Origin: Moniliella sp. 'wahieum'
Lineage: Eukaryota
Assembly (NCBI GenBank): GCA_003971905.1
Contig: RSEE01000021.1
Location: forward strand, 1-64,000
Direction of reading: 5' to 3'
DNA length: 64,000 bases
Part shown: piece by piece, positions 3,852 through 5,448 of the stretch
Position numbering within the stretch: the stretch's first letter is position 1
How the letters are laid out: every line of letters begins with the position of its first letter
Notes under the pieces: model-generated
The model's database searches: none
Told to the model about the DNA's origin: nothing
Seen by the model: the letters and a program-made list of their open reading frames with translations, nothing else
Program-made: the position numbers and the translations under genes

Positions 3852-3899
3852 TTAATTCGTGACGCGCATGAATGGATTAACGAGACTCCCACTGTCCCT
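1597..3899 (+). rRNA. 28S (LSU) rRNA, 3'-truncated at ...CCCACTGTCCCT
   Basis: LR0R and ITS4 sites (ACCCGCTGAACTTAAGCATATCAATAAGCGGAGGA), CCCGTCTTGAAACACGGACC, and an intact ACTCTCTTAAGGTAGCCAAA. Similarity to LSU ends at 3899; the peptidyl-transferase region and 3' end are absent. Confidence 0.97.
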
Positions 3900-3948
3900 C
3901 ACTGGTCAAGGTCCCTCGCGGTTCTGATTGAAAAGAAGTATAACGTTC

Positions 3949-3974
3949 CCCCCTCTCTCTTCGGAGAGAGGGGG
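3949..3974 (+). other. Perfect 11-bp hairpin with cUUCGg tetraloop
   Basis: CCCCCTCTCTC-TTCG-GAGAGAGGGGG, 50 nt past the 28S breakpoint. Confidence 0.85.
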
Positions 3975-4342
3975 CTTTGCACCTCGAAAGCTAACCCTAG
4001 AGAACCATACCACAAATTGGCATAGAAACGGGATTGGAATAGGAATCGAATTTGCTGTGTGATATCCCCTCCCTTTCCCTGTTGCGTCTTTGTTACCGAT
4101 CCCCCTGTAAGATTCCGACGTGTGGATATACTGACCTCCTTCCGACTTGTACGTATGCTGATCCCTGCAAATGCTGACTTGTGAATATACTGTTCAGGCA
4201 GGCCACCTGGGCAGAGTGTCTTTCCAACCACGCGCCGGAGTAGTGTACGACCCCCTGTATCCCCCGCACGGGACTGCCTGCCTCACCATCCCCTCATAGA
4301 TCAATGCATGCCCTCATATCCCTCTACTCTAGCACCACCACC

Positions 4343-4476
4343 ATCCGCCACCATATAACTGTGACCACACCGCATCCCGTCCGATCTGCGACGGTCACCA
4401 GTGCATCACCCAGTAAGTGTATATACCGCAATAGAAGATGAGGCCCCCATGAGAATCCTCGATGCCGTCATTTTTT
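4343..4476 (+). pseudogene. Degenerate 5S rRNA copy (5S pseudogene or 5S-derived element)
   Basis: Core CACCGCATCCCGTCCGATCTGCG matches basidiomycete 5S as I recall it. It has a colinear ATCC...CCATA 5' end and GAATCCT.G.TGC.GT 3' end followed by T6 (Pol III terminator). Many substitutions and an insertion of roughly 14 nt near 4418-4432. Confidence 0.8.
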
Positions 4477-5378
4477 CTGCTCCCTCTACTCCAGCTGCAC
4501 CTCCGCGTCTATCGTTCTACCCACACACCCCTTTCCAGATCTCCCTTTCGTTCTATGAGACGCTCCCATCACCCATTCCCCCACTGCAGTCACATGAGCA
4601 GCTACGCCGTATAGTACCTCCCAACTTTGCAACCTCACTCTGCCAAACGATCGAACCCCCCCCCCGCGCCGCCACCCTTCGCCCAGCGGTACACCTATCC
4701 ACCCTCTTCCCTTTGTACTAGCAGAACTTGGACGTAGCACCAACTATACTGGGGCTAAACCGTTTTTCCCTTGGACGTTAATAGTGTGGCTGCGCATCTA
4801 TTCCTAACCCTAGCGCCGCATAAGCCCGTGCGCGTGCGTCGGATAGGGTTGGCATCACAGCTGGTCGGGCCTGTCGCCGCCTGCTTCGTCTGCCCCTCCG
4901 CCGCCACCACCACCACCACCATGCACGCCAAGCCATTGTTCCAGCCAGCACTTTCAGCATGTGCATTGGTCCTGCTGACCTCGGCGGGGCGACCAATGTG
5001 AGGCCTTCGGAGGTATCATGGGTGCAAAACTCAGTCTCGATTCGCCCCAGCCGGTGCTCAATCCCCTGCCACCTCGAACCAAGCGGAGTGGAGGGGTGCC
5101 CACGAGCATGTTCATTTCCAGTGGTGGTGTTGAGCTCTTCCATCCTCCCTGCCGTTACGTTTCCTCGACGCTTGTCTTAACTCGGAGCCAAGCGGGGAGG
5201 CCACCCTGCGTGCCCCCACCCCCTCCCAAGCGCATAAGAGGGGGGCACACTGTGATGCCGAACGCCTGTTGCTCATCGGCTGAGCGCATGCGCTGCTTGA
5301 AGTAAGTCTCCACTATTGCCTTGCTTGCTCGTCGCTGACTTTCGAATATGAACACAAGATGAGCCTTAAGGGATGCAC

Positions 5379-5448
5379 CTGTCCCTATCTATCACGTTGC
5401 GCAACCATCCCTTAGGGAACGGGCTAGGCGACTACAGCTGCGCAAGAA
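5379..5448 (+). pseudogene. Decayed 28S rRNA fragment continuing from the 3899 breakpoint
   Basis: CTGTCCCTATCTA...AGGGAACGGGCT.GGC...CAGC...AAGAA aligns without gaps to the LSU sequence that should follow 3892 (about 50/70 identities by manual comparison with the recalled consensus). Confidence 0.75.

Follow-up and report, generated by a model that had tools for sequence, protein, structure and literature searches.

At the edges of ribosomal DNA (rDNA) arrays, terminal units can be truncated or rearranged and can carry filler DNA captured where a break was repaired. The locus described here lies in a 64,000-nucleotide stretch of DNA that was analysed as a whole and is referred to below as the window. 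It resembles such terminal units in its position between array and chromosome, in having an intact inner and a decayed outer part, and in containing what may be filler that looks like the adjacent spacer. It departs from them in that its 28S gene is broken exactly at a known retroelement target, with a short duplication flanking the interruption.

That target is the insertion site of the arthropod R1 elements, which nick the bottom strand 60 bp downstream of the R2 site, between CAC and TGTCCC (PMC2718515, PMC1919474). As in R1Bm and Drosophila R1, the insertion point in the 28S gene is the same, the junction lies 0–1 nt from the nick, the duplication starts at the nick, and the insert could be oriented like the rRNA. 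Unlike R1, the insert has no remnant of ORF1, ORF2, APE or RT, is present in one copy in the window, and resides in a host with fungal-type rDNA and fungus-like genes; the duplication in arthropod R1 measures 14 bp (TGTCCCTATCTACT), whereas here it spans 7–8 nt (TGTCCCT and one ambiguous C). The R2/R1 hybrid SIDEs of Drosophila, as described in PMC3414825, resemble the insert in being non-coding, about a kilobase or less in length and located at the R1 site; they carry an R2 ribozyme beside an R1 3′ end together with 14-bp duplications, and the insert gave no match to a ribozyme model at E ≤ 10.

Two other arrangements interrupt or follow a 28S gene in a comparable manner. The linked 35S-5S unit has been called typical of organisms such as yeast (PMC3095306). 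As in such a unit, what is probably a 5S-type gene with a T-run terminator lies a few hundred bases past the 28S sequence and is preceded by a hairpin and short subrepeats; unlike it, the 28S gene here breaks off after two thirds of its length, the 5S gene is probably dead, and a 28S stub follows behind. Introns, for their part, leave no target duplication. Group I introns of LSU rDNA, for example the I-PpoI-site intron of Physarum (PMC10946416, Table 1), are similar in forming a kilobase-scale interruption of the conserved 28S core, and this identity was rejected: the locus has an 8-nt duplication, lacks its downstream exon, and gave no match to Intron_gpI in a cmscan of 3700–9000 and 3900–64000 at E ≤ 10.

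Interruption of the 28S gene at the R1 site

The window begins inside an 18S gene, continues through 5.8S and 28S sequence, and passes by way of the insert, an orphan piece of 28S and a non-coding flank into ordinary genes (Table 1). The fungal ITS1F primer site is present at 1160–1181 with 21 of 22 positions matching. The upstream 28S sequence has its conserved cores intact in the Rfam LSU alignment, which runs cleanly through CUGUCCCU and collapses directly after it, so that the interruption at 3899 proposed in the preliminary description is borne out. The last 208 nt before this point are near-perfect, and a match spanning the break equates window positions 3700–3907 with model positions 2147–2354 (254.1 bits). 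Besides the orphan piece, no further rDNA was found in 3900–64000 by nhmmer on both strands or by alignment to 28S, and cmscan of 3700–9000 and 3900–64000 returned no second LSU piece at E ≤ 10.

Table 1. Position and supporting evidence of features along the window
Feature	Position	Strand	Evidence
18S rRNA gene, 3′ two thirds	1..1227	+	Rfam SSU_rRNA_eukarya, 965.2 bits, model 589–1831, 5′-cut
5.8S rRNA gene	1320..1472	+	Rfam RF00002, 148.6 bits
28S rRNA gene, intact 5′ two thirds	1598..3899	+	Rfam LSU_rRNA_eukarya, 1819.4 bits; final matching base at model position 2346 of 3401
Upstream copy of duplicated word CTGTCCCT; R1-type bottom-strand nick between 3892 and 3893	3892..3899	+	Sequence
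Non-coding insert, 1,479 bp	3900..5378	+	No rDNA similarity, Pfam domain or second copy in window
Perfect 11-bp hairpin with TTCG loop, 50 nt past the break	3949..3974	+	Sequence and fold
Three tandem 22-nt subrepeats, spacing 27 and 32 nt	4112..4192	+	Repeat search, 73–82% identity to reference copy
5S rRNA-like gene, probably decayed, ending in T6 (4471–4476)	4343..4476	+	Rfam 5S_rRNA, 20.1 bits
(CCA)6 microsatellite	4904..4921	+	Tandem Repeats Finder
12-nt inverted repeat straddling the 3′ junction, 11/12 complementary	5364..5417	+	Repeat search
Orphan 28S piece (stub), starting with CTGTCCCTATCTA	5379..5448	+	blastn and nhmmer against L001–L003
Single-copy non-coding flank, stub to first gene	5449..7733	.	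No rDNA similarity, Pfam match or credible repeat
G-protein alpha subunit gene, one exon, first ordinary gene past the rDNA	7734..8798	+	Pfam G-alpha, E 5.1e-116

The 28S sequence resumes at 5379 in a short stub, which was recognised with the help of three loci (L001–L003) that a metagenome scan had retrieved through the 28S word preceding the break; these are about 73% identical in 28S and were used solely as 28S references. The stub aligns without gaps to the 28S of all three, beginning exactly at their copy of the duplicated word, with an identity of 75.7% (53/70) to L001 and L002 and of 72.9% to L003. Blastn against the metagenomic 28S gave E 1.5e-7, and nhmmer against both strands of the whole window recovered the stub with E values of 1.7e-7 and 9.7e-7. 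A restart at 5379 that continues gaplessly for 70 nt, as the preliminary description had it, therefore stands, but the statement that it follows the expected 28S overstates a match of 76%. The 17 differences among the 70 nt fall at nearly invariant positions and comprise 5 transitions and 12 transversions (Jukes-Cantor distance 0.29). They are clustered and not evenly spread: successive 10-nt bins hold 10, 5, 8, 6, 9, 8 and 7 matches, and perfect runs of 13 nt (the first 13 nt of the stub) and 12 nt are interspersed with them. The stub is not recognised by Infernal, since cmscan of 5250–5650 gave no match at E ≤ 10.

The 5′ edge of the stub is sharp at 5379. When the diagonal of the alignment is extended across the preceding 60 nt, 15 of them agree with 28S (10-nt bins of 1, 4, 4, 0, 3 and 3), which is the random level, as is the ungapped match of 6/30 in the nearest 30 nt; a gapped test gave p values of 0.02–0.24 depending on length and is unconvincing. 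Similarity to 28S reaching well upstream of 5379, which would have made the piece a separate relic, was looked for, and identity there proved random. The 3′ edge fades from 5448 to about 5459, and a weak extension to about 5459 is possible.

In the window the R2 site falls between G3832 and T3833, and 60 bp downstream lies the step from C3892 to T3893. The first base of the resumed 28S sequence is 5379 (C) or 5380 (T), no more than 1 nt from where R1 nicks the bottom strand, albeit in a single instance, and the downstream junction agrees in this respect with the R1 3′ junction, as had been claimed. The duplicated word recurs at the restart, and the two 28S end points, both at model positions 2339–2346, overlap by 8 nt. 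Since both end points lie at one 28S coordinate, they point to one event in one gene; two unrelated end points would fall within 8 nt of one another in a 3.4-kb gene with a chance of about 0.5%. A random break in such a gene would lie within 1 nt of the R1 nick with a chance of about 0.2%, or about 2% when all known rDNA-element sites are counted. One insertion into one 28S gene, accompanied by a 7–8-nt duplication, is well supported on these sequence grounds, because the 28S sequence resumes no more than 1 nt from the R1 nick. The earlier proposal of an insertion with a short target duplication at this site thus agrees with the matching end points and with the random identity upstream of 5379. 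A candidate for a degenerate second target copy at the start of the insert (CACTG...GTCCCT) was rejected as not significant (p 0.077).

Content of the insert and of the downstream flank

Protein-coding remnants were sought in the insert and the adjoining flank. Ten stop-to-stop ORFs of at least 70 aa overlap the insert and none has a credible Pfam match (E < 0.1), a result in which drift of about 24% and possible frameshifts could hide faint remnants. Of the 31 ORFs of at least 70 aa across 3900–7700, 23 went into one Pfam scan and the G-alpha ORF into a separate one, seven overlapping ORFs at 6191–7520 making up the rest; the sole matches among the 23 were noise (E 0.057 and 0.15). The ORF at 4979–5305 had no match by phmmer among 1.84 billion representative proteins. 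These searches agree with the preliminary description that the insert has no RT or endonuclease ORF.

Other traits of mobile elements were equally elusive. No ribozyme was matched in 3700–9000 or 3900–64000 (cmscan, E ≤ 10). Rfam models give poor coverage of R2-type ribozymes; inspection by eye revealed no HDV-like or convincing P1 pairing around the hairpin at 3949–3974, for which a role as a P4-like stem is conceivable. Sequence inspection and a repeat search found no terminal inverted repeats, direct repeats, LTRs, or A- or T-rich tails at the ends of the insert. Elsewhere in the window blastn gave short low-complexity matches only and nhmmer none at E ≤ 10, and the 3′ junction had no match in metagenome contigs. 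The suggestion of a site-specific mobile element thus finds no support in domains, ribozymes, repeats or an A-tail, and the search for further copies at the same 28S site, which the preliminary description had recommended, yielded none in the 64-kb window and none among metagenome contigs carrying the 3′ junction.

The sequence that the insert does contain looks more like a ribosomal spacer than a transposon, because it combines a 5S-like gene and its T6 terminator with a hairpin and three subrepeats. The 5S-like gene, the hairpin and the subrepeats all lie in the orientation of the rRNA. The 5S-like match extends over the full model (positions 1–120) at a score below the gathering score of 38, with E 1.3 across all 4227 Rfam families; it begins 444 nt inside the insert and its helix I is unpaired in the Rfam alignment. 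Its T6 run is one of only three runs of at least six T on the + strand of the window, and the region is probably a dead 5S gene. Strand asymmetry is strong, the + strand being C-rich at 4050–4950 with a GC skew of -0.28 to -0.43. The surroundings of the hairpin are, as a whole, not unusually stable (z -1.3 to -1.8), and RNA folding of both junctions and the 5S-like region (z -1.26, -1.78, +0.18 and -1.05) revealed nothing beyond the hairpin itself. In content, then, the insert points towards the plain alternative that the preliminary description had set beside its own proposal, namely a rearranged and decayed terminal rDNA unit.

In the flank beyond the stub, 13 scanned ORFs had no credible Pfam match, and the best repeat elsewhere in the window was one nhmmer match with E 0.1. 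Ordinary genes follow from 7.7 kb onwards, and the locus is for this reason regarded as a true transition from array to chromosome. Two protein searches gave no relative above 68% identity; the best named ones, those of the G-alpha protein included, were fungi at 53–57%. The host is GC-rich, intron-poor and fungus-like, and the locus is best explained as the downstream edge of its rDNA array or as a partial unit standing alone.

Origin of the insert

We favour an old scar of break repair in the terminal 28S gene, to which we assign a probability of roughly one half. The terminal copy would long ago have suffered a staggered break at the position that R1 nicks in arthropods, and the break would have been mended with 1.48 kb of filler DNA, fill-in of the staggered ends producing the 7–8-nt duplication. 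The filler would be spacer-like, with its strong hairpin, three short subrepeats and a putatively dead 5S gene that ends in a Pol III terminator, each in the orientation of the rRNA. The other units of the array would since have kept the 28S sequence upstream of the insert intact through gene conversion, while the insert and the short 28S stub, cut off from conversion, drifted by about 0.29 substitutions per site and the remaining 28S sequence was lost by deletion. One-sided homogenisation had already been put forward in the preliminary description, and an intact upstream 28S against a downstream orphan diverged by about 24% is what it would leave. If the locus is a repair scar, it offers a tidy example of concerted evolution halting at a heterology, in which the 28S is perfect right up to the insert and has drifted by about 24% immediately behind it.

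The scar is favoured by the coincident 28S end points, the random identity before the stub, the contrast between intact upstream 28S and diverged stub, the lack of other rDNA in 3900–64000, and an insert that is spacer-like in content, single-copy in the window and devoid of coding or terminal-repeat signatures. Against it counts the 3′ junction within 1 nt of the R1 nick, a coincidence that break repair would have to ascribe to chance. The 5S match below the Rfam gathering score also counts against it, the spacer origin of the filler being putative, as do the clustered changes of the stub and a perfect 11-bp hairpin in drifted DNA. At about 24% drift such a hairpin is unexpected; either it has been maintained or it formed at a later time, or else the insert is not as old as the stub implies.

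Alternatively, the insert would be the fossil of a 28S-specific non-LTR retroelement, non-autonomous or 5′-truncated, that used the R1 nick by target-primed reverse transcription (TPRT) and was either convergent with R1 or its distant relative; such a fossil would have been kept only in the terminal copy, beyond the reach of concerted evolution. We consider this doubtful, but it is the alternative to be taken most seriously. Resumption of the 28S sequence at 5379/5380 agrees with the R1 bottom-strand nick, which lies 60 bp downstream of the R2 site, and the short duplication overlaps the 14-bp duplication of R1, of which PMC2718515 describes 8-bp variants in some D. willistoni copies. A precise 3′ junction with a less tidy 5′ side is likewise as described for TPRT (PMC2718515). 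The Drosophila SIDEs provide a precedent for a non-coding occupant of the R1 site, and small RNAs (tRNA, U12) have become joined to R2 copies by template jumps (PMC3414825), so that a piece of 5S within a retrotransposed insert is not absurd. Here, however, the 5S-like gene lies 444 nt inside the insert and ends in a genomic-type T6 terminator, which fits capture at the DNA level better than a template jump. The single copy in the window, the 3′ junction without a match in metagenome contigs, the lack of an RT or APE remnant in the Pfam and phmmer searches, the absence of a ribozyme model match at E ≤ 10 or of HDV-like pairing by eye, and the missing A-rich tail all argue against a retroelement, as does the fact that the sole transposon in the window unrelated to non-LTR elements is a Ty3/gypsy relic. 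The review table of PMC10946416 and the literature searched list no fungal retroelement specific to an rDNA site.

The fullest form of this proposal, in which a 28S-specific retroelement of a fungus-like lineage would have cut the gene at the phosphodiester bond that arthropod R1 nicks and left the insert, preserved at the array edge, as its sole remaining fossil, we regard as unlikely, a little more so than the general case. Were a retroelement fossil nevertheless the true explanation, a fungal-type genome would join those with rDNA-site-specific retrotransposition at the R1 site, and the insert would constitute the first R1-site element outside animals. Terminal truncated rDNA units might then serve as archives of extinct rDNA parasites, and array edges would be the place to look for them.

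It is improbable that nothing was inserted and that the intact partial unit and the 70-nt piece have separate histories, one as a younger, truncated unit and the other as the remnant of an older, decayed one, for instance, with end points that agree by accident. Debris of rDNA would be expected to gather at array edges, and a gapped comparison of the 30–40 nt upstream of 5379 lies slightly above background (p ~0.02), but the end points agree within 8 nt in a 3.4-kb gene, the ungapped identity upstream of 5379 is random, and neither the insert nor the flank contains other decayed rDNA. We give still less credence to an assembly artefact in which high-copy rDNA reads were misjoined to a single-copy locus at 3899. 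The window does begin inside 18S, as do the ends of collapsed rDNA contigs, but a false join need not strike the coordinate from which decayed 28S resumes 1.48 kb further on, and an overlap of eight bases is much too short to deceive an assembler. Comparably remote is a deletion-variant unit, in which the 3′ third of 28S would have been deleted internally, so that the present-day IGS1-5S spacer of normal units, from 3900 onwards, directly follows 28S position 2346: the hairpin, subrepeats and 5S-like gene 444 nt on do follow the layout of a linked 5S spacer, but the restart of 28S from the same coordinate at 5379 is left unexplained, and the 5S-like gene is not a homogenised working copy, because it is degenerate and its helix I unpaired.

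With regard to the changes in the stub, the right arm of the inverted repeat that straddles the 3′ junction covers a cluster of five of them; since chance alone would produce roughly one pair of this kind per 4 kb, the repeat is recorded as a lead only.

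A single insertion in a 28S gene

The 28S gene of this rDNA unit follows the eukaryotic LSU model almost letter for letter up to CUGUCCCU, where the cmscan alignment (3700-9000) ends; its last matching base, 3899, is position 2346 of 3401 in the model, and approximately 1,050 model positions, including the peptidyl-transferase centre, are absent from this copy. Just before the break the gene reads GAGACTCCC in place of the GAGAUUCCC of the Rfam consensus, and this 26-nt word is common to only three metagenome contigs. Scanning the metagenome contigs with the 26 bases before the break supplied three loci (L001, L002 and L003) as 28S references; these contain the conserved core but, being only about 73% identical overall to the window's 28S, are distant references.

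Behind the insert, an orphan piece of 70 nt aligns with all three references without gaps, starting exactly at their CTGTCCCT, with a perfect match over its initial 13 bases and identities of 53/70 to L001 and L002 and 51/70 to L003 (blastn E 1.5e-7; nhmmer E 1.7e-7 and 9.7e-7 across the whole window, both strands). Its homology to 28S is real, but the earlier statement that it 'follows the expected 28S' was too strongly worded for a match of this identity, which Infernal does not recognise even at E<=10. The piece has an abrupt 5' edge: along the diagonal of the alignment, the 60 bases before 5379 are identical at 15/60, a random level, against 53/70 within the piece, and right-anchored comparison with the window's own 28S gave 6/20, 6/30, 8/40 and 13/60, so that similarity reaching well upstream of 5379, considered in the preliminary description, was not found. 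A gapped score that is mildly high over lengths of 30-40 nt (p ~0.02), and not over 20 or 60 nt, was not counted as an extension. At the 3' edge similarity fades between 5448 and about 5459, and nhmmer searches of 3900-64000 with window bases 1-3899 and the 3' parts of L001 and L003 returned no other rDNA-like sequence.

Intact 28S ends at model position 2346 and the orphan piece resumes at 2339, CTGTCCCT being present at both 3892-3899 and 5379-5386. Two unrelated end points would lie at most 8 nt apart in a 3.4-kb gene with a probability of about 0.5%, and a false assembly join has no reason to fall there; hence we accept that a single event placed 1,479 bp in one 28S gene and duplicated 7-8 nt. 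R1 3' junctions, as described in PMC2718515, all lie 60 bp downstream of the R2 site, with 14-bp duplications and 8-bp variants in D. willistoni, and the bottom-strand cut given for R1Bm is ACA!GTG, that is, between CAC and TGTCCC on the top strand (PMC1919474). In the window the R2 site lies between G3832 and T3833, 60 bases before the C3892-T3893 step, and the orphan piece resumes at C5379/T5380. Insertion at the R1 site with a short duplication, as proposed previously, is thus upheld, and its location is correct to within one base.

Features of the rDNA unit, the insert and the flanking chromosome
Feature	Position	Strand	Details
18S	window start to 1227		Rfam model 589-1831, cut at window start
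ITS1	1228-1319		~92 nt, unusually short
5.8S	1320-1472		Rfam
ITS2	1473-1597		~125 nt, unusually short
28S	1598-3899		Rfam LSU, to last matching base
Insert	3900-5378	+	non-coding
Hairpin	3949-3974		perfect 11-bp stem, TTCG loop, fifty bases after break
Subrepeats	4112-4192		three, 22 nt each
5S rRNA-like match	4343-4473		full-length Rfam model alignment
T6 run	4471-4476		at end of 5S alignment
Orphan 28S piece	5379-5448	+	70 nt
G-alpha gene	7734-8798		one exon
Other genes	beyond 7.7 kb		kinase fragment; ribosomal protein uS7; Ras-type GTPase; Dus enzyme; PALP enzyme
tRNA gene with intron	8939-9040	+	Rfam tRNA 50.1 bits, 102 nt against 71-position model; just downstream of G-alpha gene
Ty3/gypsy chromovirus relic	33796-38877	-	distributed among several ORFs
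 chromodomain	33796-34425
 integrase core	34233-35441
 gag with zinc knuckle	38137-38877
Metallophos genes (purple acid phosphatase type)	39554-41032; 45485-46675	-	two, ~4.5 kb apart

Insert contents and drift of the flank

The 5S-like match scores 20.1 bits, below the gathering score (E 1.3 counting all 4,227 families), with a good conserved internal segment and helix I unpaired. Runs of at least six T occur only three times on the + strand of the whole 64 kb, and one of them sits exactly at the place of a Pol III terminator, which independently supports reading the match as a probable dead 5S gene. A hairpin followed by subrepeats and a 5S-like gene in rRNA orientation resembles the arrangement of a linked 35S-5S spacer of the yeast type. 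Such linkage is found in many lineages of fungi other than the filamentous ascomycetes. It is called typical of organisms such as yeast in PMC3095306. The central 900 bases of the insert have a marked excess of C on the + strand, where GC skew falls as low as -0.43.

Of the ten stop-to-stop ORFs of at least 70 aa overlapping the insert, none had a Pfam match below E 0.1, in keeping with the earlier observation that it has no reverse transcriptase or endonuclease ORF, and a search of 1.84 billion representative proteins with one of them, ORF 4979-5305, gave no match. A 95-aa ATG ORF (5018-5305, +), whose start, MGAKLS, is myristoylation-like and whose stop-to-stop frame has neither a Pfam match nor a relative among those proteins, we attribute to chance. 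At E<=10 the 5S model is the only Rfam family that the insert matches, so that neither ribozymes nor group I introns are represented; its ends bear neither terminal repeats, inverted or direct, nor an A- or T-rich stretch, the window holds no further copy, and the 3' junction has 0 matches in the metagenome contigs. An apparent degenerate second target copy in the first 17 bases was not significant (p 0.077).

Compared with a nearly invariant reference, the orphan piece has 17/70 differences (5 transitions and 12 transversions; JC distance 0.29), a spectrum that is not RIP-like, and the upstream 28S has no comparable drift. Conversion with the rest of the array, which would keep the 28S intact up to the heterology and let everything behind it drift, would be the simplest account of this contrast. 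The differences are clustered, not uniform. A 12-nt inverted repeat, the left arm of which is the end of the insert, has five of them in its right arm, so one templated event may explain these five; this is a lead only, as chance would produce about one repeat of this kind per 4 kb. On the conversion account the perfect 11-bp stem of the hairpin is odd within DNA that has drifted; it may be maintained, for example if it halts transcripts from the truncated unit, or be later in origin.

Origin of the insert

The insertion event is common to both main readings. At a probability of about 0.5, we favour a scar of break repair filled with spacer-type DNA, which is supported by the spacer-like content and the absence of transposon hallmarks. 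It is opposed by the position: the R1-site match must then be chance, at approximately 0.2% for that site or 2% across all known rDNA-element sites.

The site-specific mobile element of the preliminary description is the less likely of the two, unproven and in our view doubtful. It would fit the restart within one base of the R1 nick, the short target duplication, and a precise 3' junction beside a looser 5' one; furthermore, Drosophila has non-coding R1-site elements, and template jumps append small RNAs to R2 copies (PMC3414825). A 28S-like tail can be part of an element, since some R2 families described in PMC5035012 carry diverged 28S-like sequence in the 3' UTR, although here, by contrast, no true 28S follows the orphan piece. 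Against this, the insert is known as a single copy, lacks any enzymatic remnant, ribozyme or tail, and has its 5S-like gene 444 nt inside with the genomic terminator kept. Our literature search found no fungal element of this kind, and Table 1 of one review (PMC10946416) lists none, its fungal rows comprising only an Ascobolus spacer LTR element, Ty1 in the yeast spacer and MITEs in Nosema rDNA. With an unknown R1-site element unlikely a priori in a genome of fungal type, we place this reading behind the repair scar. Unrelated relics, a deletion variant joined to present-day spacer, and an assembly error, for which a false join lacks reason to hit the same 28S coordinate, jointly share the remaining probability.

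Flanking chromosome and host

Ordinary genes run from 7.7 kb on, and the locus is therefore the place where rDNA gives way to single-copy chromosome. The tRNA gene was missed by ARAGORN and by a gathering-threshold Rfam scan of 1-20000. The 50 large window ORFs that were scanned include neither a non-LTR reverse transcriptase nor an APE endonuclease. An 801-aa open frame without a Pfam family (23485-25890, +) lies in 70% GC DNA and may not be a gene, because GC-rich DNA readily gives rise to long open frames on either strand.

The host lineage is fungus-like, and its own proteins are absent from the collections searched. The fungal ITS1F primer site is present (21/22 matches), GC in the window genes reaches 60-70%, and the G-alpha gene is intronless; the best named relatives of its product come from Mucoromycota, chytrids and basidiomycetes (53-57%), with matches to other contigs at 64-68%. 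A purple acid phosphatase gives the same picture, the best named relatives for 39554-41032 being in filamentous ascomycetes at about 55% identity.
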